From Thermodesulfovibrionales bacterium (GTDB taxonomy: Bacteria > Nitrospirota > Thermodesulfovibrionia > Thermodesulfovibrionales > SM23-35), in the NCBI GenBank assembly GCA_963715195.1, contig CAVQRT010000002.1, forward strand, positions 32,001 to 96,000: a stretch of DNA of 64,000 bases. Direction: 5' to 3'. The notes beneath the pieces are model-generated. The model ran no database searches. It was not told the DNA's origin and was given only the letters and a program-made list of their open reading frames with translations. Of the stretch, positions 30,621 through 40,420 are shown piece after piece; position 1 is the first letter of the stretch, and every line of letters begins with the position of its first letter. The position numbers were made by a program, and so were the translations under genes.

Positions 30621-31472
30621 TTAATAGAACTCTTTAATCGTATTTTCTATTCTTGATATATCAATATGTTGCCGTATCAGGGGTTTGTCCTTGATAACAG
30701 GTATTCTCTCCTCCAGCACAGGGCGGTGGTTTCTGTAAATGATCCCCAGGGGAATGCGTTCTCCCCACTCCAGAGCCCGCTGAAATGCGCTAATCTTGTC
30801 TTCGGGATCATATCCGGATTCAATATGATAGACGCGCTGGCGGTACCACTCATAGGTATTTATTTTATTGAACGTCACACACGGTTGCAGGATATCGATT
30901 AATGCAAATCCTTTATGGAGTATCGCTTCCTTCATGAGTTCCTTGAGATATTCCTGATCTCCTGCAAATCCCCTCGCTACAAAGCTGCAGTCAAGAGCTA
31001 TCGCAAGAGCTAAAGGATTTAATTGTTCCGAGAAAACGCCCAACGGCTGATTCTTCGTGACCATTCCCTCCATACTCGTCGGTGAGGGCTGGCCTTTCGT
31101 GAGCCCGTATATCTGATTATCATGCACAAACAGCTTCAGATTAATATTTCTTCGTATTGCATGCATCAAGTGGTTACCGCCTTCACCATAACAGTCACCA
31201 TCCCCGGCAACAGCGATGACAAGCATCTCATGATTAGCGAGTTTAATGCCCGTTGCAACAGGAAGGGTCCTTCCATGCAGCCCGTTGAAGGTATTGCATT
31301 TCAAGTAATGGGGGAACTTCGACGCTTGACCGATCCCGGACACAATGGTGAATTGATGCGGCTCCAATTCAAGTTCAGCCATCGCTTCCTTGAAGGCATT
31401 GAGGATACTAAAATTACCGCAACCGGGGCACCACGCAGGGGTCTGCGCGCTATAATCTTCTGATGATGGCAT
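30621..31472 (-). CDS. korB: 2-oxoacid:ferredoxin oxidoreductase beta subunit
   Basis: WCPGCG, TPP motif GDGD...NQIYGLTKGQ, QPCVTFN; start moved to ATG 31472. Confidence 0.9.
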   Translation of the reverse strand: MPSSEDYSAQTPAWCPGCGNFSILNAFKEAMAELELEPHQFTIVSGIGQASKFPHYLKCNTFNGLHGRTLPVATGIKLANHEMLVIAVAGDGDCYGEGGNHLMHAIRRNINLKLFVHDNQIYGLTKGQPSPTSMEGMVTKNQPLGVFSEQLNPLALAIALDCSFVARGFAGDQEYLKELMKEAILHKGFALIDILQPCVTFNKINTYEWYRQRVYHIESGYDPEDKISAFQRALEWGERIPLGIIYRNHRPVLEERIPVIKDKPLIRQHIDISRIENTIKEFY

Positions 31473-33171
31473 CGAATTCTCCGAGGAGCTTTTCAACAGT
31501 GAACGGTCTCCCGTCATATCTGTTTATCATATGATTAAATGCATATCCGGTCTCTGCCCTGAGAAGCCGGGCAAACTGTCCGGTAGCATTCTGTTCTACA
31601 GAGATAACGACTTGCGTATTGTTCAGCAGGGGAAGGCAGTCAAATTCACCGGATAAGGGGAACGGATACATTTCACTGAAATGCAGCATTGCAGCTTTCT
31701 TGTCCTTTGAAAGAATTTCGACAGCCTCTCTGACAACTCCGTAGAGAGAACCCCAGCATACGAAAAGAATATCCGGTTCCCTGCTGCCGTAAAGAACAGG
31801 CTGGTTCATTTCATGCCTAATGAGCGGCAGTTTCTTCAGCAATCTTTTCTGAACCATTTTAATCCGCGTTTCTGCGTCCTCGATGATATGGCCTTCCTCA
31901 TCATGTTCATCACTGTCAGTCACAACAAGGTTTTTCGAATCTCCGGGTACCCCGAAAGCAGACACGCCGGTCTCTGAAAAGGCATGCCGTTTATACTGTT
32001 CGACCCTCCTCAATTCATCACCCCTGAGACGGTAATCATGAAAGCTGATTTTCGCAAAGTCGAAACCGTCATACGTCCATTCTGTATCAGCAAGATACTG
32101 GTCAAAAATTACCAATGCCGGTATCTGGAATTTTTCGGCGAGATCAAAAGCCTTGTTCGTCAGATAGTATGCCTGCTCGGGAGTACCCGGTGCAAAAACA
32201 ACCCTCGGAAATTCTCCATGGGCAGCGTATATGGCAAACGAAAGATCCCCCTGTTCTGTCCTCGTGGGAAGACCCGTAGCGGGAGCCGGTCTCTGTCCAA
32301 GGGCTATGACAACCGGTGTTTCAGTCATGCCAGCCAGAGAAAGGCCCTCTACCATGAGGGCAAACCCCCCGCCGGCGGTTCCTGTCATCGCTCTCACACC
32401 CGCAAAGGATGCCCCAAGCGCCATATTGACAGCTGCGATTTCATCCTCTGCCTGTTCAACCACTATGCCGTATTCCTTTCCCTTTCCTGCAAGATAATTC
32501 ATGATCCCGGTTGAAGGCGTCATAGGGTAGGCTGAGTAGAATTTGCACCCTGCTGCGATGGCGCCCAGTGCAATACCTTCGATTCCGGAAATCAGCATCC
32601 TGGGGTTCCCGAACGATGAAGGGACGAATGAGCATTTCGGGCAGTTCCGAAGAGCAAAATCAAATCCGGACCTGGCAGCCTTGATATTTGCCTGTATAAT
32701 ATCCTCCCCTTTTTTGCTGAAGGTATCACGTATGATTCCATCAAAAAGGTCAAGATTCATCCTGAGCATGCCGAGCACAGAACCAGTTGCCACGGTATTT
32801 GTCATTATTTTGTTTCCGTGCTGCTGGGCGAGATGAACGAATGGGATATCAAGAAAATGGGGTTGCTCATGTTTTTGTTCCAGGGCGGAAGAGTCATAGA
32901 TGATAAGTCCATTCTCGCGAAGCTCATTTTGATGCAGGGGAATGCTTTCTTTATCGAACGCAACCAGGATATCAACGTGCTCCCTTGATGCCGTGATTGG
33001 TTTTTCCGAGAATCTGATCTGGAAGAAATTGTGTCCACCCCTTATGCGGGATTCATAATCCTGGTGAGTGAAGACATGATACCCGGCGCGTGAAAAAACC
33101 TTCGCGAGTGTATCTCCGATGGTCTGGATGCCTTGCCCTGCCTCACCGCCTATTTTGATGGAATAGTCCAT
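31450..33171 (-). CDS. korA: 2-oxoacid:ferredoxin oxidoreductase alpha subunit
   Basis: GGEAGQGI, SRIRGGHN, YPMTPS, EDEIAA, TGLPTRTEQGD. Confidence 0.9.
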   Translation of the reverse strand: MDYSIKIGGEAGQGIQTIGDTLAKVFSRAGYHVFTHQDYESRIRGGHNFFQIRFSEKPITASREHVDILVAFDKESIPLHQNELRENGLIIYDSSALEQKHEQPHFLDIPFVHLAQQHGNKIMTNTVATGSVLGMLRMNLDLFDGIIRDTFSKKGEDIIQANIKAARSGFDFALRNCPKCSFVPSSFGNPRMLISGIEGIALGAIAAGCKFYSAYPMTPSTGIMNYLAGKGKEYGIVVEQAEDEIAAVNMALGASFAGVRAMTGTAGGGFALMVEGLSLAGMTETPVVIALGQRPAPATGLPTRTEQGDLSFAIYAAHGEFPRVVFAPGTPEQAYYLTNKAFDLAEKFQIPALVIFDQYLADTEWTYDGFDFAKISFHDYRLRGDELRRVEQYKRHAFSETGVSAFGVPGDSKNLVVTDSDEHDEEGHIIEDAETRIKMVQKRLLKKLPLIRHEMNQPVLYGSREPDILFVCWGSLYGVVREAVEILSKDKKAAMLHFSEMYPFPLSGEFDCLPLLNNTQVVISVEQNATGQFARLLRAETGYAFNHMINRYDGRPFTVEKLLGEFDAIIRRL

Positions 33172-33203: not shown

Positions 33204-33671
33204 TTACATAAAACTCTTCTTTAGATTATTCAGCCAAATGATATGATTCTTTTCTTCCCTGATGATTGCATCAATAATCTTTTTCTCTAGTAATGCTTCA
33301 CGGAGTGTATAGTAGTAAAGGAGCGTCTCTCGCTCAAAGCACAGAGCAAAATCAATTGCTTCGGTTGCGGTTTTCACATGCTCAAGTGAGGGCAGACACT
33401 TGTCTTTCCCGAGAAAAAATTCCGAATCAACCAGCGCCCTGAGGTAAAGAGTTACCTCGCTCCACCCTTCCGGCTCTCCGTCATGTAATTGGCTCTCAAG
33501 CTTCAGGAAGCTTTCCCCGTGTCTAATCTCATGTGCGGCAAGCAGTTCGAAGAGTTTTTTTAATTCAGCCTTATCGTGGAATTTTTCCGCCATTCTGGTA
33601 TAGAACTCTTTCCCCAGTTTTTCTGTCTGAACCGCCTGTTCAACCACTTCTCTTACCGAAAACGTTATCAT
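33204..33671 (-). CDS. Ferritin-like (rubrerythrin-family) di-iron protein
   Basis: E..G..FY / EIRH and E...YY / EEKNH helix pairs; start ATG 33671 after AAGGAG. Confidence 0.75.
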   Translation of the reverse strand: MITFSVREVVEQAVQTEKLGKEFYTRMAEKFHDKAELKKLFELLAAHEIRHGESFLKLESQLHDGEPEGWSEVTLYLRALVDSEFFLGKDKCLPSLEHVKTATEAIDFALCFERETLLYYYTLREALLEKKIIDAIIREEKNHIIWLNNLKKSFM

Positions 33672-33717
33672 GGCTTCTCCTTCATTTTTCCCGATGATTG
33701 GTTCTTCTCCATAAATT

Positions 33718-34083
33718 TTAGAGGATATCCCGGATATCGTCAATCGTTATGATATTACGCTCGACAAGATGCGTCAGGATGATAAATCCGCCGCAGGGAG
33801 GAGGTCTTTTTGTCCCTTGCCGATTGAGAGCTGGAGACTGTTTTGACAGGATGAAATCGCAGTCATTCTGATAAAAAGGGCACACCGTACACATATTCTG
33901 TATGAGCATCTCCTGCATACTATAGTCATATGCCCTGTCCGTCACGAAAAAATTGATGGCTTTTCCATTCTTCATCAATCTCTCAACAACCAGCAATCCC
34001 TGGCATTCAAGCTCTTCCTTCGTTGAAGGCTTGAAATAGGCACAGAAACTTCTGCACAGATTATCCCGCATTTGCTGATTCAA
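33718..34083 (-). CDS. Cys-rich hypothetical protein, possibly metal or Fe-S binding
   Basis: Seven Cys in CxxxC...CxG...CxxCPF...C...PCGG; tightly packed in an operon. Confidence 0.6.
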   Translation of the reverse strand: MNQQMRDNLCRSFCAYFKPSTKEELECQGLLVVERLMKNGKAINFFVTDRAYDYSMQEMLIQNMCTVCPFYQNDCDFILSKQSPALNRQGTKRPPPCGGFIILTHLVERNIITIDDIRDIL

Positions 34084-34096
34084 AGGATGTTTCCTT

Positions 34097-34828
34097 TCAT
34101 AGGAGCGCTGTCAGGTTGCCCTTTCTGAGCTTCTCAAGAATCTCCTCCACAAGCATATGCATATCACCCATTTTGAACACAACATCCTCAGCCGGCAGAT
34201 AGACCATGTTTCTCAGTGATGTTTGAAGGGTGGTGAGAGACTGAATAACCCCGCCATACAATTCCTGTGCATCAGACCGTCTTTGCCGCAGGAGATTTTC
34301 TGCCTGCCTGCGCTCGATAATCTCACTTTCCAGTTCCGCAACAACCGCTTCGAGTTGCCTTGTCCGTTCCAGAACAAGGCCTTCCAGCCGTTCATTCCAC
34401 TGTTTGCTTTCTTCCTCGGTTTGTTTGCGCTTTGTGGTATCCCGAAATATGCCCATGAGACATCTCTCACCACCAATTGACAGGTGTGAACAACTGATAT
34501 CAACGTAAAGGATACCTCCCTGCTTGTTTTTCAACGGGATATCATGCACAATTGACACCTCGCCGCGGTTCATTCGTTCAAACTGATCAAGGACTTCAGC
34601 CAGGTGCTCCTGCGGATGAATATCGTAAACGGTCAAAGACGATAACTCTTCCTGACCGTATCCCAGCATGTCACAGATTGCCTGGTTTCCGGTAACGAGC
34701 ATCTTTTCTTCCGGGTCTGCCAGTAAAATTCCGTCAAAGGCACGATCAAAAATAGTCCTGAACCTCTCTTCACTTTCTTTCAGCGCATCCATGGTCTCAA
34801 TAAGGTTATGGTTGACTTGGTCACACAT
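34097..34828 (-). CDS. PAS-domain protein with a signalling helix and no recognisable output domain
   Basis: ESEERFRTIFD, N..ICDMLGY, IFRDTT.RKQ.E, LVLERTRQL. Confidence 0.75.
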   Translation of the reverse strand: MCDQVNHNLIETMDALKESEERFRTIFDRAFDGILLADPEEKMLVTGNQAICDMLGYGQEELSSLTVYDIHPQEHLAEVLDQFERMNRGEVSIVHDIPLKNKQGGILYVDISCSHLSIGGERCLMGIFRDTTKRKQTEEESKQWNERLEGLVLERTRQLEAVVAELESEIIERRQAENLLRQRRSDAQELYGGVIQSLTTLQTSLRNMVYLPAEDVVFKMGDMHMLVEEILEKLRKGNLTALL

Positions 34829-34926
34829 CGATTTTCTCTTCCCCGGTGGCAGTTCTGACAGTATATCACAAAAGGAATTTCTTCAACGTATGGTGCTGTT
34901 GATGTATTATTATTTACAATACGGAC

Positions 34927-36093
34927 ATGCACTATTTTCTCTCACCAGATGCAGTTATAAAATTACTGGAACGCCCTTCCGTCTATAAGATAAGAACGGA
35001 TGAACTGTATGAACTGGATGACGTTTCTTTTGAATTTCTCCGGCAGTGCGGGTCTGAAACTGGATGCGAAGGATCCGATAGAATTTTTCTCGATTATTGT
35101 CTGAAAGAGGGGATCCTATCCATGGAGAAAGTATCGTTGAGACGGCCCGCACTCATAAAGGCACCAGAACCTTCACTCAGGTACCTCGAACTGCAGATCA
35201 CGAAAAACTGCAATCTCAGTTGCAGGCACTGTTATATCGGCAATCAGGGAAAAGATCAAGCAAAACTCGGAGAAAACAACGAGCTTTCCTTTGAACAGAT
35301 AAAGGCTGTATTCCATGAATTTGAAGAGATGCAGGGTCTCAGGGTTCTTATCAGCGGCGGAGAGCCTCTTACGCACAGCCAATTCAACAGGATCAATGCA
35401 ATACTCCCCAATTTTTTTTTCCGGAATATATTATTAACGAACGGCCTGCTGCTCACCCCAAGAATTTTGTCTGAGCTGAATGCCCACGAGATTCAGATCA
35501 GCATTGACGGACTTGAACATGCTCACGACTCCCTGAGAGGCAACGGAACATTCAGGTCGGCCATCGGAGCGGCCAGAAGGGCGCTTGATGCAGGGTTTCC
35601 GGTTTCGGTATCAACCATGGTTCATAGAAAAAATCTCAAAGATTTTGACGGCATGGAGAAGCTTTTCAAGGGACTCGGGATTAAAGACTGGACAGTCGAT
35701 GTGCCCTGCATAACCGGTAGGCTCAAAGAAAATCCCGAATTTCATATAAGGCCGGAGGTCGGCGGAAAATATCTCAGATACGGGTACGGTGAAGGGCTCC
35801 ATGCAGGGGCACCAGGATATGCATGCGGCACGCACCTCATGGCGGTCGCGGCAGACGGGAAAACTGCGAAGTGCTCGTTCTATGCGGACAGCCCGGTTGG
35901 AAGCATTGAGGAAGGGCTCAGAGCGAACTGGCAGAGGATAAAGCCTGTCAGACTCGAATCATTAAACTGTGATTGTCATTTTCTGAGTGAATGCAGGGGT
36001 GGCTGCAGATACAGGGCACTGCTTTCGGGGAATGAACTCGGTAAAGACTTTTACAGATGCCATTCATATGATATACTGCATTCAGATGAATGA
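34927..36093 (+). CDS. Radical SAM/SPASM enzyme with N-terminal RRE/PqqD-like extension (putative peptide maturase)
   Basis: CNLSCRHC, SGGEP, SPASM C..MAVAADG...C and CDC....CRGGC...C; about 80 aa precede the rSAM core. Confidence 0.85.
   Translation: MHYFLSPDAVIKLLERPSVYKIRTDELYELDDVSFEFLRQCGSETGCEGSDRIFLDYCLKEGILSMEKVSLRRPALIKAPEPSLRYLELQITKNCNLSCRHCYIGNQGKDQAKLGENNELSFEQIKAVFHEFEEMQGLRVLISGGEPLTHSQFNRINAILPNFFFRNILLTNGLLLTPRILSELNAHEIQISIDGLEHAHDSLRGNGTFRSAIGAARRALDAGFPVSVSTMVHRKNLKDFDGMEKLFKGLGIKDWTVDVPCITGRLKENPEFHIRPEVGGKYLRYGYGEGLHAGAPGYACGTHLMAVAADGKTAKCSFYADSPVGSIEEGLRANWQRIKPVRLESLNCDCHFLSECRGGCRYRALLSGNELGKDFYRCHSYDILHSDE
36050..36077 (+). promoter_or_regulatory. Putative promoter for the small peptide gene, inside the rSAM 3' end
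   Basis: TTTACA-16 nt-TATACT with extended -10 TG. Confidence 0.45.
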
Positions 36094-36142
36094 AATGTCC
36101 GGATATGAAGTCCGGGTTCCTCTATGAAAGGGGGTGTCTCAC

Positions 36143-36205
36143 GTGACAATCAGGAAGATTTCTAAAAAGGCTTCTTTAACCTGTAAGTGCAAAAGTTCTT
36201 GTTAA
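36143..36205 (+). CDS. 20-aa Cys-rich peptide MTIRKISKKASLTCKCKSSC, putative RiPP precursor
   Basis: GTG start 6 nt after AAAGGGGGTG SD; TAA stop; 49 nt after the rSAM stop; followed by a terminator; too short for the ORF track. Confidence 0.75.
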   Translation: MTIRKISKKASLTCKCKSSC

Positions 36206-36240
36206 CAAAATGTGATTAGCTGAAAGACATGGCTACTACA

Positions 36241-36280
36241 AAAAAGAAAAGGCTGGTTTGTGCACCAGCCTTTTCTTTTT
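36241..36280. terminator. Bidirectional Rho-independent terminator
   Basis: Perfect 17-bp stem AAAAAGAAAAGGCTGGT-ttgtgc-ACCAGCCTTTTCTTTTT between the peptide gene and ferredoxin. Confidence 0.85.
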
Positions 36281-36288
36281 AACCTTCC

Positions 36289-36474
36289 TTATTCCATAGT
36301 GATGGCTTGAGTCGGGCAGGTATCAGCGGCTTCCTGGCAGTTGCAGGTGTTGCATTTGTCAGGACCTATGACTTGTGCCTTTCCATCGTCACCAACTTTG
36401 AATACCTCGGGGCACATTTCTTCACATGTACCGCATCCCTCACACGCATCTTCGTTTACTACCGGTTTTGACAT
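36289..36474 (-). CDS. Monocluster ferredoxin
   Basis: CEGCGTCEEMCP and C-terminal CPTQAI; AGGAGG SD. Confidence 0.9.
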   Translation of the reverse strand: MSKPVVNEDACEGCGTCEEMCPEVFKVGDDGKAQVIGPDKCNTCNCQEAADTCPTQAITME

Positions 36475-36648
36475 ATTTTTTCCTCCTTTTGCATTAATGT
36501 TTAAATTTCTCTTCTTGAGACCCCAAAAAGAGATAGGGAATAATTAATTTTTCTATTGTACCATTATTTCCCCTGCTCCTGCCTACTGTCTTGCTGTTTT
36601 ATTTTCTCTCTTTCCTGTCTGCTACCGACTACCTAAATATCTACTCCC

Positions 36649-37149
36649 TTACGCCCATGGAGTACCGCCGTCAACTATGCTGTGCTCTTCCCACATAAAC
36701 CAGTTGCCCGTATCCTTCATAAAATTATAGGTATTTGCAAAGATATCATAGTGCTGCTGCTCTTCCTGAATTAGTCTTTCAAAGAGCTGCTTCTCTTTCT
36801 GATTCCCCGCCTCCGTTTCAACCTGTCTGTAGAATGATATACCCTCCTGTTCCATCTGCATGGCTATCTGGAATGCTTCGAGCTCATCCTGCGTTGCAGC
36901 TACACGATGCATCATCGCATTCTTCATGGATTCGAAGATCGTCTGTACCTTTCTCATTGGGCTGACATCTTCCATCGTTATATCAACCTCTTTAAATATC
37001 TGGGAAAGCATCTTGAGATGCCTCTTTTCATCCTCCGTTACCGACTGAAACATTTTTTTCCCGGCAGGATGGCTTGTCTTCTCCGCAGCCTTCGAATAAA
37101 AATCTATTGCATCCTTCTCCATTTTTATTGCGATTTCTATAGCATTCAT
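36649..37149 (-). CDS. Ferritin-like (rubrerythrin-family) di-iron protein
   Basis: Duplicated AIxME...FY...E..H helices. Confidence 0.8.
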   Translation of the reverse strand: MNAIEIAIKMEKDAIDFYSKAAEKTSHPAGKKMFQSVTEDEKRHLKMLSQIFKEVDITMEDVSPMRKVQTIFESMKNAMMHRVAATQDELEAFQIAMQMEQEGISFYRQVETEAGNQKEKQLFERLIQEEQQHYDIFANTYNFMKDTGNWFMWEEHSIVDGGTPWA

Positions 37150-37246
37150 GGCGACCTCCTCGCTTCATCATTCAGCGTCTATTCAGTTTAATCCTTTTGT
37201 ACGATGATAATCAATTCGTTATTGCAATCGTTTATTATAAGAAACA

Positions 37247-38254
37247 ATGACACGTCCGCCTTTTCTACAGTGGTATCCAACGCTGCGGTGCAACCAGCAA
37301 TGCAGCTTCTGCTTCAATCAGAACATAACAACTGGATACGCAAACCGGGATATGTGCGAGAATGAAGCATACTCACTTGCGGAAACCCTCTTGCGCGAGG
37401 GCATCATGGAACTGGACATCCTTGGCGGGGAGCCGATGCTTATCCCCTACATGAAACATTTTCTCACCTATGCTACCAACGCCGGCCTGACGGTCAACAT
37501 CAGTACAAACGGCAGTCTTCCCGGAATGGTCCATGCGCTGGCGAAGATACCCACCCGTCTGTTAACCATAGGGTTCTCTCTCCATGGCTTTTCAGACACC
37601 CACAATGCAATCACCAGGTCTGATAATTTCAAGTCAGTCCTTGAAGGGATCAGAAGATCACTTGGGGAAGGAAAACATACAATCGTAAAGAGCGTTCTGA
37701 AAACTGCAAACAGACGGGAAATTCGAGGCCTCATCCACTATCTTAGGGAACGCGGTGTAAAAACATACTTTCTGCTGCATGAGGATATTCTCGGAAGGAA
37801 AAATCAAACAGAAAGTCTATCATTTCCCGATTTCATGACATATTTCTCTGCTCTCAGATCTGAATTGCATGATGTCATCGATATCGGATTCGTTGCAGCA
37901 TCCGGTTTTTTTAAATATGGGATGCTTGTTCACGGCCGTTGCGATGCCGGGACTGGAAAGCTTGCTGTACTTCCCGACGGTTCCACATTCCCCTGCAACC
38001 TGCTCTTTGGATTCAGGGAATTTTGCCTCGGCAATATCCTGAGGGACAACATCGAAACCATCCTGAAACATCCTGTACTTCAGAAATTCAGGACATTGCC
38101 CGGTAATATATGCAAATCCAGCAACTGTATCTATTCCGCAAACTGCAGTGGAGGATGTCCTGCTCACAGTTACGCTTTTTATCGTGATATTGGAATCAGG
38201 GACCCCCGCTGCCGCAATGATAAAAGAGACCCCAAAAAAAATGGTAATATATGA
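37247..38254 (+). CDS. Radical SAM/SPASM protein without N-terminal extension
   Basis: CNQQCSFC, GGEP, CDAG...PDGSTFPC, C....C....CSGGC, DPRC. Confidence 0.85.
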   Translation: MTRPPFLQWYPTLRCNQQCSFCFNQNITTGYANRDMCENEAYSLAETLLREGIMELDILGGEPMLIPYMKHFLTYATNAGLTVNISTNGSLPGMVHALAKIPTRLLTIGFSLHGFSDTHNAITRSDNFKSVLEGIRRSLGEGKHTIVKSVLKTANRREIRGLIHYLRERGVKTYFLLHEDILGRKNQTESLSFPDFMTYFSALRSELHDVIDIGFVAASGFFKYGMLVHGRCDAGTGKLAVLPDGSTFPCNLLFGFREFCLGNILRDNIETILKHPVLQKFRTLPGNICKSSNCIYSANCSGGCPAHSYAFYRDIGIRDPRCRNDKRDPKKNGNI

Positions 38255-38331
38255 GAAAATTGAAGTGCGGTTTGTTACCGTGATCAATTCTTCGTGTAAC
38301 AAAGTTCATACTAAACCACAAAGGAGGTTTC

Positions 38332-39549
38332 ATGAAACCCACTGAAATAAAACCTGATATTTACTGGATTGGTGCGATCGATTGGGCGGTCAGAGATTTT
38401 CACGGTTATGTTACGCCAAATGGAACAACATACAATAATTATATTGTTCTCGACGAGCAGATAACCCTTTTTGACACGGTAAAACATGACTTTTCAGATG
38501 TGACCATACGAAATATCAAGAGCCTTATTGATCCATCAAAAATCAAAAACATCGTAATCAACCACATCGAGAACGACCATGTAAGCAGCATCGGGGATAT
38601 TATGCATCTTGCACCGGATGCAACAATTTATATTTCTGAAAGAGGGAAAAAGGGACTCGACAGGTTTTTCGATACATCGGCATGGGACATGAAGATTGTT
38701 AAGACCGGTGACACATTAAATATCGGCAAAAGAACGCTCCTTTTCCTTGAAACCCCGATGCTGCACTGGCCTGATTCCATGATGACCTATATCAAAGAAA
38801 ATAAGCTTCTGATCAGCCAGGATGCATTTGGACAGCATTATGCCTCTGCAGCGCGGTTTGACGATGAGTTCATAACCTGCTTTTCTCTGTCAGAATTAGA
38901 AGACGCCATCAAAGATTATTATGCCAATATCCTCATGCCGTTCGGTACCCTCATAAAAACCAAAATTGCAGAAATTCAGAAGTTGGGTCTTGAAATCGAC
39001 ATGATAGCCCCTGATCACGGGATTATATGGAGGAAGGACCCGTCCAAGATCATCAACATGTATCTTGATATGGCTGACGGGAAGGCAGACCTCAGAGTTG
39101 TTATCATTTATGACACCATGTGGCACAGTACAGAACATATGACTCTTCCCCTTATGCAGGGTATCAAAGATGAAGGGGTTGATGTCAAAATCGTAAAACT
39201 CAGAGCAAATCCAATCAGCCTGGCTGTAAAAGAGTTCTGGAAAGCGCGGGGATGCCTCCTCGGGTCGCCGACGCTGAATAATTCGATGTTCCCGACCATA
39301 GCTGAATTCCTGACATATCTGAAGGGTCTCAGGCCGAAAAATCGTCTGGTAGGTGCCTTCGGCAGCTATGGATGGATGGGTGGCGCGGTAAGGGATATCT
39401 GCGAAGAATTCAGAAAAATGGGGCTTGAGATGATCGAGGACGGGGTTCAGGTTGTGTACAAACCGTCTGCCGAGGACGAGAAACGGTGTTATGAGTTCGG
39501 GAGAGAATTCGCGAATAGGATCAAAGAATATCACAAGACCTACCAATAA
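38332..39549 (+). CDS. fprA: Flavodiiron protein (FprA; O2/NO reductase)
   Basis: GTTYNNY, NHIENDH, HWPDSM, DAFGQH, PDHG, flavodoxin domain. Confidence 0.92.
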   Translation: MKPTEIKPDIYWIGAIDWAVRDFHGYVTPNGTTYNNYIVLDEQITLFDTVKHDFSDVTIRNIKSLIDPSKIKNIVINHIENDHVSSIGDIMHLAPDATIYISERGKKGLDRFFDTSAWDMKIVKTGDTLNIGKRTLLFLETPMLHWPDSMMTYIKENKLLISQDAFGQHYASAARFDDEFITCFSLSELEDAIKDYYANILMPFGTLIKTKIAEIQKLGLEIDMIAPDHGIIWRKDPSKIINMYLDMADGKADLRVVIIYDTMWHSTEHMTLPLMQGIKDEGVDVKIVKLRANPISLAVKEFWKARGCLLGSPTLNNSMFPTIAEFLTYLKGLRPKNRLVGAFGSYGWMGGAVRDICEEFRKMGLEMIEDGVQVVYKPSAEDEKRCYEFGREFANRIKEYHKTYQ

Positions 39550-39565
39550 GAAAGGAGACTCATAA

Positions 39566-39886
39566 ATGCCTAAATTTCCAGAACAATATCAAAGAATCAG
39601 AAAAAGGTTCAAGAAATTTTTTTCCGCGGTCGATAATCTCGGGAAGGCAACACGGTCTGCTGGGCCAATTAATACAAAAACTTCTCATTTGATACAGCTC
39701 GCCGCTGCTGCTGCTATCAGATCAGAGGGATCAGTTCATTCTCATACAAGAAGGGCACTGGACGAAGGAGCAAAACCGGACGAAATATATCATGCCTTAA
39801 TCCTGCTCACAAGCATCATCGGATTTCCCACCGTATCTGCAGCATTAAGCTGGGCTGATGATGTTATTCAAAAGCGTAAGGGATAG
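39566..39886 (+). CDS. Carboxymuconolactone decarboxylase family protein
   Basis: LIQLAAAAA...VHSHTRRAL..GA..DEI...GFP. Confidence 0.8.
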   Translation: MPKFPEQYQRIRKRFKKFFSAVDNLGKATRSAGPINTKTSHLIQLAAAAAIRSEGSVHSHTRRALDEGAKPDEIYHALILLTSIIGFPTVSAALSWADDVIQKRKG

Positions 39887-39925
39887 GAATAAACCTTAAA
39901 GAAGAATTACCACTAAGGAGGCACA

Positions 39926-40420
39926 ATGTCTAAGACAGAAAAAAATCTTCAGGATGCATTTGCCGGCGAATCACAGGCGAACAGAAAATATCTTGCTTTT
40001 GCAAAAAAAGCCGATGCCGAAGGGTATAAACAGGTTGCCAAGCTCTTTAGAGCTACTGCAGAGGCCGAAACGGTTCATGCATTGAATCATCTGAGAGAAC
40101 TCGGAGGAGTGAAAACCACAAAGGAAAACCTCGAGGCTGCCGTCGGCGGGGAGACGTATGAAGTGGAGAATATGTATCCTCCGATGATTCAGGATGCCCT
40201 GACAGAGGAGAAAAAAGGTGCGCAGAACAGCTTCATGTTTGCATATGAAGTGGAAAAAATTCACGCAGCACTCTATACAAAAGCACTGGAAGCGCTCGGT
40301 AAAAACAAAGAGGTTGATTATTATGTCTGCCAGGTATGCGGCAACACCGTAGAAGGGGAGCCGCCAGACCAGTGCCCGATATGCAAAGCGATGAAAAAGA
40401 TGTTCAAGAAGATGGAGTAA
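39926..40420 (+). CDS. rbr: Rubrerythrin
   Basis: AFAGESQA, AETVHA, EKIH, C-terminal CQVCG...CPIC rubredoxin site. Confidence 0.92.
   Translation: MSKTEKNLQDAFAGESQANRKYLAFAKKADAEGYKQVAKLFRATAEAETVHALNHLRELGGVKTTKENLEAAVGGETYEVENMYPPMIQDALTEEKKGAQNSFMFAYEVEKIHAALYTKALEALGKNKEVDYYVCQVCGNTVEGEPPDQCPICKAMKKMFKKME

Follow-up and report, generated by a model that had tools for sequence, protein, structure and literature searches.

Is a 20-codon open reading frame (ORF) that follows a radical S-adenosylmethionine (SAM) enzyme gene in a Thermodesulfovibrionales genome (GenBank assembly GCA_963715195.1, contig CAVQRT010000002.1) a gene in its own right, and if so, is its small cysteine-rich product what the enzyme acts upon? 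We addressed this question in a window of 64,000 nt, which is the whole stretch of DNA that was analysed and to which all coordinates without a locus prefix refer. A sequence-only reading of the window had proposed that the peptide is the precursor of a new ribosomally synthesized peptide with post-translational modifications (RiPP) and that the enzyme binds it through an N-terminal RiPP recognition element (RRE). Here we report that the peptide gene is conserved beside the enzyme gene in several phyla and that the two are present or absent together, and we consider it likely that the enzyme has this peptide as its substrate, within a so far undescribed system of anaerobes for modifying ribosomal peptides. 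The two genes are:

34927-36093, + strand: 388-aa radical SAM enzyme with an RRE-like domain, a radical SAM core and a SPASM-like Cys array
36143-36205, + strand: 20-codon peptide gene with a GTG start, product MTIRKISKKASLTCKCKSSC

A conserved 20-codon gene adjoins the enzyme gene

The interval 36143-36205 translates to (M)TIRKISKKASLTCKCKSSC followed by a stop codon. The automatic ORF list places the start at an upstream GTG (36134), and it is the start at 36143 that is matched in 50 of 50 homologous copies. Between the stop codon of the enzyme ORF (34927-36093) and the GTG at 36143 there are 49 nt, and a Shine-Dalgarno sequence, AAAGGGGGTG, lies at 36127-36136 with a spacing of 6 nt to the start.

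We carried out six-frame scans on 46 loci, consisting of the enzyme orthologues from 20 related genomes and of 26 further public loci with near-full-length matches; a search for related loci with the single protein found none, and a query built from an alignment succeeded. An ORF of 20-21 codons with the pattern M-x-I-x-K-x8-C-x-C-x3-C-(x)-stop adjoins the orthologous enzyme in 36 of the 46 loci, so that the short Cys-rich ORF on which the sequence-only reading was built is indeed kept at homologous loci in several phyla. In the related genomes the peptide is present at 16 of 20 loci; of the remaining four, two lie on stretches that stop at or just past the enzyme gene (L002, L017) and two belong to genomes that hold the peptide elsewhere (L006, L012). 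Among the further public loci it is present at 20 of 26 and was missed at L021, L024, L025, L034, L036 and L042, with only 93 nt 3' of the enzyme covered at L034. Linked peptides were found in Nitrospirota, Chloroflexota (Dehalococcoidia), Actinomycetota (Thermoleophilia and others), Rokubacteria-type bacteria, Desulfobacterota and one archaeal metagenome-assembled genome (MAG). The gene order changes between these lineages: the peptide gene is downstream of the enzyme gene in the Nitrospirota, Dehalococcoidia, Thermoleophilia and Rokubacteria-type loci, upstream of it in Desulfobacterales and Geobacteraceae, and in the archaeal MAG it is on the opposite strand and overlaps the 3' end of the enzyme gene.

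When the 36 peptides were aligned, M1, C14, C16 and C20 were invariant and I3, K5, K15 and S19 were conserved in at least 90%, which gives an overall pattern of M-x-I-x-K…C-K-C-x-x-S-C over 20-21 aa. At the DNA level, codon positions 1, 2 and 3 have majority-base frequencies of 0.82, 0.82 and 0.55 (50 distinct coding DNAs), both TGC and TGT are used at each of the invariant cysteines, and Ser19 is encoded through TCN as well as AGY codons. Nearly all of these 50 copies are preceded by a Shine-Dalgarno site. The peptide ORF is a real, translated-looking and conserved gene, far beyond what chance would produce, and it is invisible in databases because gene callers never report a gene of 63 nt.

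Enzyme and peptide occur together

If the peptide and the enzyme work together, genomes should tend to hold both or neither. Among 41 relatives, with 32 strong enzyme matches and the peptide counted at E <= 1e-3, 31 had both, 7 had neither, one had the enzyme only (G018, where the enzyme lies at a contig edge) and two had the peptide only, one of these through a weak match (G015) and the other being G036, to which we return below. We extended the comparison to 151 genomes drawn evenly from the phylum, with an enzyme threshold of E <= 1e-60. In this sample the enzyme was found in 58 genomes and the peptide in 55, all 55 lying inside the 58, although related genomes are not independent, so that this co-occurrence, which does not amount to a statistical test, overstates the support. 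Three genomes had the enzyme alone, namely G143, G075 with a completeness of 65%, and G140, in which the gene lies at a contig edge. The tallies of enzyme and peptide agree family by family, including families of mixed content (3/12 and 3/12, 7/8 and 7/8, 2/3 and 2/3), and joint presence or absence within families is the pattern expected of a functional pair.

The enzyme and its predicted leader-binding domain

The enzyme is a member of the radical SAM superfamily, as seen from the motif C95-x3-C99-x2-C102, invariant in 18 orthologues, and from the match to Pfam Radical_SAM PF04055 (E 2.1e-19, 70.7 bits against a cut-off of 29.5); the other Pfam match is Fer4_12. Invariant in the same 18 orthologues are the C-terminal array C300-x10-G311-x4-C316, C348-x-C350-x5-C356-x3-C360 and C378, as well as C58 and C261. 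The SPASM motif is a seven-Cys array of the form C-x9-15-G-x4-C … C-x2-C-x5-C-x3-C … C, and the enzyme has C-x1-C where this motif has C-x2-C. An AlphaFold model of the whole enzyme reached a pLDDT (predicted local distance difference test) score of 73.9, and its nearest Foldseek neighbours were SkfB, SuiB and CteB. Structural alignment with VIA-align gave Z 21.6 for SkfB (model residues 7-366, 313 residues aligned) and Z 21.5 for SuiB (model residues 2-380, 335 residues aligned), at a sequence identity of 14-19% to structures of the SkfB/SuiB type. The alignments with SuiB and anSME extend to residues 380-388, where pLDDT is low, and enzymes without the N-terminal domain align only from about residue 80.

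34927-35181, + strand: RRE-like (PqqD-type) N-terminal domain, residues 1-85, a predicted fold

The claim that the N-terminal extension is an RRE is upheld by the predicted fold and by the SuiB and SkfB alignments, which run from residues 2-7 on, but not by sequence profiles. Modelled alone from 32 sequences, residues 1-85 gave a pLDDT of 88.6 and the order beta-beta-beta-beta-alpha-alpha. An RRE is recognised by a winged helix, made of a three-stranded sheet and helices, at the N-terminus of a maturase, and the predicted structure, with its four strands and two helices, is of this type. Rows 1-10 of the Foldseek search with this domain are all RiPP leader-binding proteins, including TbiB1, a lasso B1 protein, SuiB and a cyanobactin-type heterocyclase; the best match, TbiB1, has E 0.011 and a template-modelling (TM) score of 0.54, and none reaches E 0.001. 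TruD, CteB, MccB and PbtF follow at ranks 12-23, mixed with unrelated WW-domain matches, and ThcOx is also below the top ten. By fold, and not by sequence, the domain is therefore best described as a predicted RRE. Against a library of 1.84 billion representatives, a profile of the domain retrieved 129 proteins at E <= 1e-3, of which 83 are at E <= 1e-10, and since it finds only 129 proteins it marks one compact family.

The sequence-only reading did not recognise the peptide as a member of a named family, and the family searches agree with it: the peptide has no Pfam or NCBIfam match, and no NCBIfam cut-off was reached by the enzyme. Among the best 25 of 73 families with E up to 0.01, the highest score of the enzyme was that to WgkB (95 bits against 650), and the matches are confined to residues 85-275. 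SynChlorMet ScmE and ScmF (TIGR04250/TIGR04251) scored 85.2 and 67.1 bits against 400. In public records the enzyme is named 'radical SAM protein', 'radical SAM protein with 4Fe4S-binding SPASM domain' or 'hypothetical'.

Signals for expression of the peptide gene

36050-36077, + strand: extended -10 promoter-like site of the peptide gene, inside the last codons of the enzyme gene
36098-36134, + strand: two-hairpin leader with AUGAA-type loops, the second hairpin pairing with the ribosome-binding site
36241-36280, both directions: perfect 17-bp stem-loop, a two-way terminator common to the peptide gene and the convergent ferredoxin gene

As MAGs labelled Nitrospirota or Thermodesulfovibrionales provide the nearest public loci, we read these signals by the rules of bacterial ribosome binding and sigma-70. 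The spacing, the tiny ORF, the Shine-Dalgarno sequence with its 6-nt gap, the promoter site and the 17-bp terminator described in the sequence-only reading are all present in the DNA. The promoter site consists of TTTACA, 16 nt and TATACT with the TG extension. Its score of 10/12 does not by itself exceed chance, with 5 sites in 2 kb compared to 2.6 +/- 2.0 in shuffles; its better support comes from relatives. Of 16 linked relatives, 13 have a TGnTAnnnT element 51-65 nt ahead of the start codon and a 14th has one at a distance of 31 nt, compared to 2.0 expected from shuffles. The -35 element is encoded by the conserved L-Y-K-C codons of the enzyme, and its Y-D-I codons carry TATGATATA. This end of the enzyme gene may be under both protein and promoter constraint.

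For the leader, we examined 24 linked Nitrospirota copies that were not picked by motif, although the structure was derived from the same sequences, which favours it: the paired share of cells was 77.9%, a level reached by none of 500 shuffles (69.7 +/- 1.4%), slid controls gave 41-59%, and in helix 1 two-sided changes occur at 6 of 6 pairs. Over all 66 copies the anti-Shine-Dalgarno hairpin is unsupported, with a paired share of 60.9% compared to 58.6% in shuffles and 61.9% after a slide of one column, and it holds only for the linked Nitrospirota set. RNAalifold gave no consensus structure from the 66 leaders nor from the 24. In this genome a covariance model of the leader found its own training site and one chance-level match (E 0.84) and missed the leader of the second peptide copy, and no Rfam family reached its gathering score within 35800-36500. 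In the genus g32 (L127-L129, L133), three such hairpins precede a 19-aa variant of the peptide.

The terminator stem has a free energy of -29.2 kcal/mol (z -4.99), and none of 200 shuffled sequences forms a fold as stable as this. The predicted transcript of the peptide gene has about 200 nt (about 36085 to 36283). A metatranscriptome contig of 251 nt spans 35993-36243 and is a weak hint of transcription, given that DNA can occur in such libraries; the RNA runs yielded six short contigs that are uninformative on starts, ends and expression level, and a DNA run yielded no contig.

These signals also bear on whether the small ORF might not encode a functional peptide but be a regulatory leader ORF or a part of a structured RNA or terminator region, which we regard as extremely improbable. 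Such an explanation would suit a short region between a gene end and a strong terminator, and the conserved structured leader ahead of the ORF, and it is at odds with the amino-acid conservation combined with free third positions, with the use of both codon families for Ser, with copies that stand alone with a promoter-like site and a terminator of their own, and with the lack of an Rfam family at threshold. An attenuator was rejected on the codon signature, the stand-alone copies and the position, because an ORF that is downstream of the enzyme and ahead of a terminator and a convergent gene has nothing to attenuate.

A Cys-rich partner protein accompanies the enzyme

33718-34083, - strand: 121-aa Cys-rich partner with two C-x2/3-C…C-G modules and no Pfam or NCBIfam match

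The sequence-only reading had not mentioned this protein, nor the second SPASM enzyme and the unlinked peptide copies that are described below. Its modules have the form C-x2/3-C-x-[FY]-[FY]…C-x-G, with C65, C68, F70, C97 and L103 invariant in 22 sequences; it falls into no named ESM Atlas cluster (unnamed clusters only, no Pfam families) and has no sequence relative in the PDB. Homologues of the partner adjoin the enzyme across phyla, in divergent orientation in Nitrospirota and between peptide and enzyme in Desulfobacterota (L032, L041, L042), and a one-module form of 74-101 aa is found in Actinomycetota, Chloroflexota and Rokubacteria-type loci. In the set of 41 relatives the partner is present in 30, all of them enzyme-positive, that is in 30 of 32 with the enzyme and in 0 of 9 without it.

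In at least five library proteins of 469-513 aa (P0153, P0156, P0162, P0166, P0209), a partner module is fused directly ahead of the RRE-radical SAM enzyme, supported by an hhalign probability of 98.5% and E 1.5e-15 for P0153 and by a BLASTP E of 1e-19 for P0162. Since such natural fusions to the enzyme exist, the partner appears to work in the same unit as the enzyme, and it may be a metal- or Fe-S-binding accessory domain. The module is further found fused in a REC-PAS-HisKA_3 protein (475 aa, L135:272-1696) and in a protein with a weak Cupin_2 match (229 aa, L137:200-886); in the former, the Cys-rich module stands where the ATPase domain of the kinase would be. Prediction of a complex of the enzyme with the 121-aa partner gave a score of 0.00 in two runs without controls, which speaks neither for nor against binding.

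Unlinked peptide copies and the case for an unmodified peptide

This genome has a second copy of the peptide, MTIRKVPKRASLTCKCKSSC, at G000:C30:286335-286394 (L101:4001-4060), which outscores the copy in the window and sits between a gene for an HMA_2 heavy-metal-associated protein and a nitroreductase gene. We took 34 unlinked peptide places and annotated their neighbours. Stand-alone copies bear their own promoter-like site and terminator. The second copy in this genome is of the Lys type, and other copies of this type have as neighbours an HMA-type ATPase (L106), a glutaredoxin (L104), a superoxide dismutase (L107) or a rubrerythrin (L105). At 13 loci, His replaces Lys17 (C-K-C-H-x-S-C). 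A P-type ATPase gene is near this His variant in 8 of the 13, four of them with YHS and/or HMBD metal-binding domains, a thioredoxin-reductase-like Pyr_redox_2 flavoprotein is found in 5 (with a YHS domain in two), and a secreted Met-rich protein in 4 (L111, L124, L130, L131). Met-rich secreted proteins of this kind occur in copper resistance. In addition, one ORF at L134:1925-2755 (- strand) encodes a Pyr_redox_2 flavoprotein with a peptide-like end, MKISKVAKQQAITCRCRSSC, at its C-terminus, in frame and with no intervening stop, which is either a natural fusion or the result of a lost stop codon.

Two recurring cassettes can be seen among the His-variant loci L111, L115, L116, L117, L119, L122, L124, L126 and L131. 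In the first, the (YHS-)thioredoxin-reductase-like flavoprotein is accompanied by a YHS/HMBD P-type ATPase in 4 of 5 loci and by a Met-rich secreted protein in three, and the second contains a P-type ATPase and a lipoprotein-like protein of 213-234 aa, with a LolA-like protein in 3 of 4 loci. At L111 (G036:C89), two peptide genes flank an ICMT/PEMT-family methyltransferase, a DUF5676 membrane protein and a YHS P-type ATPase.

Several of our findings weigh against the peptide being the substrate of the enzyme, or against parts of that proposal. In many cases a peptide copy lies well away from the enzyme (at 24 kb or on another contig), with up to 6 copies per genome (G010 has six matches at E <= 1), and an unmodified role is possible for some of the unlinked copies. 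G036, which is 93% complete, has two peptide genes, and neither the enzyme nor the partner was found there with the queries used. The partner was not found in the enzyme-bearing G006 and G021. The C-terminal domain of the enzyme has no match to Pfam SPASM PF13186, and the model is of low confidence in this part (pLDDT 28-65 past residue 260). The RRE assignment is drawn from fold prediction, where the Foldseek E-values are weak; of 32 N-terminal domains, one was matched by Pfam PqqD (E 0.015), and a hidden Markov model (HMM) of the 32 domains, searched against PDB sequences, gave chance rows only (E >= 0.38). The thioether chemistry, finally, is proposed by analogy with SkfB, CteB and PapB-type enzymes.

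Some of these points are shared by an alternative that we consider unlikely, namely that the peptide remains unmodified and serves as a tiny thiol- and Lys-rich metal binder or chaperone, similar to a metallothionein or copper chaperone, while the enzyme acts elsewhere, for example on the partner, and the two co-occur through a shared stress pathway. The many copies unlinked from the enzyme, the sister peptides inside copper-export operons and the peptide in frame at the end of the L134 flavoprotein ORF would all be in line with this, and the partner is itself Cys-rich and in some organisms fused to the enzyme. A SPASM enzyme that cross-links a Cys-rich protein is known in CrpC/CrpA, according to those passages of the paper that describe this pair (PMC13692751). 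An unmodified peptide would however leave unexplained why adjacency to an RRE-bearing enzyme survives gene-order changes across phyla, why the M-x-I-x-K segment is strict and the length fixed at 20 residues, as expected of a leader that an RRE recognises, and why the enzyme is present in all 55 peptide-bearing genomes of the phylum sample. We thus prefer the peptide as the substrate of the enzyme.

Neighbouring genes and the fate of the product

37247-38254, + strand: 335-aa second radical SAM/SPASM enzyme without an RRE (Pfam Radical_SAM and SPASM)
34097-34828, - strand: PAS-domain protein (Pfam PAS, E 6.4e-9), upstream of the partner gene and on the same strand
36289-36474, - strand: 61-aa 4Fe-4S ferredoxin (Pfam Fer4_13, E 1.2e-11), convergent with the peptide gene
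36649-37149, - strand: 166-aa rubrerythrin/ferritin-like protein (Pfam Rubrerythrin, E 2.1e-18)
33204-33743: rubrerythrin-like gene
38332-39549: flavodiiron protein

Of the 41 relatives, 21 have the second SPASM enzyme, and all 21 also have the RRE-bearing enzyme; in 14 of these 21 the two lie at most 3 kb apart. The second enzyme shares 34% identity with the one encoded immediately after the RRE-bearing enzyme in the Desulfobacterota locus L042. We take it to be an accessory tailoring enzyme in a subset of genomes. In G010, the equivalent of the PAS-domain protein is a single REC-PAS-HisKA_3 protein of 475 aa that ends in the Cys-rich module. The ferredoxin is in the same position in 14 of 46 clustered loci, all from Nitrospirota, and a rubrerythrin homologue is present in 17 of 46. 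The enzyme-peptide pair lies within an oxidative-stress island (33204-40420), which also holds ORFs at 39566-39886 and 39926-40420, and 2-oxoacid:ferredoxin oxidoreductase-like ORFs are found upstream at 30621-33171, their names being read from the translations alone.

That no peptidase or exporter is adjacent, as the sequence-only reading had stated, is confirmed in that no conserved protease or exporter was found beside the enzyme in 17 annotated loci, with M24 peptidases in 2 of the 17. Its suggestion that a metal or redox role is plausible also fits the neighbourhoods, which include rubrerythrins, ferredoxin and flavodiiron protein here and copper-export loci in the case of the sister peptides.

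A second alternative has to be considered at this point, in which the peptide would be sacrificed as the scaffold of a small-molecule cofactor, in the manner of PqqA and MftA. Its C-terminal residues would be cross-linked or decarboxylated, and unlinked proteases would then free a redox-active or metal-binding compound. We consider this quite unlikely. A housekeeping-like distribution with a single enzyme copy in each genome, the lack of exporter and immunity genes near the enzyme, an invariant Cys at or next to the C-terminus, redox-protein neighbours, and PqqE and MftC among the partial NCBIfam matches are all compatible with a scaffold. Yet there is no conserved peptidase nearby, nor are there dehydrogenases like those of mycofactocin and pyrroloquinoline quinone (PQQ); the scores of PqqE (57 against a cut-off of 381) and MftC (75 against 265) are far under membership, and a Gly or Ser comes after the last Cys in some lineages, contrary to a chemistry that needs a free C-terminal Cys.

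Proposed mechanism and significance

With the peptide as the enzyme's substrate, we suggest the following sequence of events. The peptide gene would be expressed from its own promoter within the end of the enzyme gene, with a structured leader covering the ribosome-binding site and with its own terminator. The RRE domain most likely holds the basic N-terminal half of the peptide (M-x-I-x-K-V-x-K-K), and the target of the radical SAM/SPASM part is most likely the C-terminal core T-C-K-C-K-S-S-C, in which it would probably form intramolecular thioether links of the sactionine or ranthionine type. The Cys-rich protein of about 120 aa would act in the same unit as the enzyme, and in some lineages a further step might be carried out by the second SPASM enzyme. 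As no protease or exporter is conserved, the product is probably intracellular, and it probably serves in the handling of metal (copper) or redox stress. In the specific chemistry, which we propose by analogy, we have far lower confidence than in the peptide being the substrate.

A more far-reaching interpretation can be offered only tentatively, and we hold it to be possible and rather doubtful: the peptide, crosslinked by the RRE-bearing enzyme together with the Cys-rich accessory domain, would be a housekeeping intracellular copper/redox buffer of strict anaerobes, in bacteria and archaea, with several peptide genes per enzyme and with synthesis gated by the leader RNA. As a part of the same tentative interpretation, the His variants would be wired into copper-export operons, and the YHS-thioredoxin-reductase-like flavoprotein may keep the peptide reduced. 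If this were true, the system would represent a new functional class of RiPP, a metal/redox cofactor rather than an antibiotic, and its precursors would be among the shortest of radical SAM enzymes.

The pair is kept by most of the sampled Thermodesulfovibrionia-type Nitrospirota and by lineages of several other phyla, which suggests a basic function in anaerobes. If a modified Cys peptide is tied to copper export and oxidative-stress genes, this would add a ribosomal, enzyme-matured small molecule to the metal and thiol buffering of anaerobes, give SCIFF-like orphan systems a testable physiological context and provide a compact enzyme-substrate pair with a peptide of 20 aa for studies on SPASM chemistry and RRE recognition.

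Comparison with known systems

In the full texts searched, with supplements and subscription journals outside the scope, we found no description of the peptide or of the enzyme family, and the strings CKCKSSC and CKCKGSC were absent. The closest likeness is to SCIFF and its maturase CteB (Tte1186, Clostridia; PDB 5why, 5wgg), which also pair an RRE-radical SAM-SPASM enzyme with a short Cys-rich peptide next to it. SCIFF and its ranthipeptide maturase are widespread in anaerobes, have no adjacent exporter or protease and no known role, and the peptide is about 45 aa long with 6 Cys. The spread among anaerobes and the locus free of exporter and protease are similar here, and CteB is among the best structural matches. 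The peptide described here, in contrast, has 20 aa with 3 Cys rather than about 45 aa with 6, which sets it apart from SCIFF, and the SCIFF maturase model TIGR03974 was not among the best 25 of 73 matches for the enzyme and scored 50 against 425 on the second SPASM enzyme. To our knowledge, no conserved Cys-rich partner protein or copper-operon sister peptides have been described for SCIFF.

The sactipeptide enzymes SkfB and AlbA and the streptide enzyme SuiB have the same domain order of RRE, radical SAM and auxiliary clusters, and SkfB and SuiB are the best whole-protein matches. Their systems yield secreted antibiotics or signals and have proteases and exporters in the cluster, whereas no such genes are conserved here and the sequence identity is only 14-19%. 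Mycofactocin (MftA/MftB/MftC) and PQQ (PqqA/PqqD/PqqE) are likewise built from a short peptide and an RRE-dependent SPASM enzyme and have a housekeeping-like distribution. Their peptides become intracellular redox cofactors, with Val-Tyr or Glu…Tyr cores. Here, on the other hand, the core consists of Cys, Lys and Ser, there is no peptidase or dehydrogenase set, and the enzyme is outside both the MftC family (TIGR03962, 75.4 bits against 265, over residues 88-252 only) and the PqqE family (TIGR02109, 57.3 bits against 381).

In Methanococcus voltae, as stated in the passages of that paper on the pair, the RRE-radical SAM-SPASM enzyme CrpC forms thioether links on the Cys-rich CrpA, encoded by a neighbouring gene; CrpA is a large protein in which a 17-residue Cys motif is repeated ten times, CrpC is assigned to TIGR04463, and its authors suggest a link to iron-sulfur metabolism (PMC13692751). 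TIGR04463 is not among the best 25 of 73 NCBIfam matches of our enzyme, all of which, as listed, are far below cut-off, and CrpC/CrpA appears to be a different family from the system described here.

With methanobactins and metallothioneins there is a functional analogy only, in that small Cys-derived ligands take part in copper handling. Methanobactin is an exported product of MbnBC, which does not belong to the radical SAM enzymes, and metallothioneins are unmodified and have motifs of the C-K-C-K type. No homology to methanobactins, other copper-binding RiPPs or metallothioneins turned up in the analyses that were run.

Taken together, and as far as sequence comparison can place it, the system resembles the SCIFF/ranthipeptide and sactipeptide systems yet belongs to none of the curated families that were tested. 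It differs from SCIFF and sactipeptide systems in four respects, namely a precursor of 20 residues with 3 Cys, a Cys-rich partner domain, peptides present in multiple copies, and sister peptides in copper operons.

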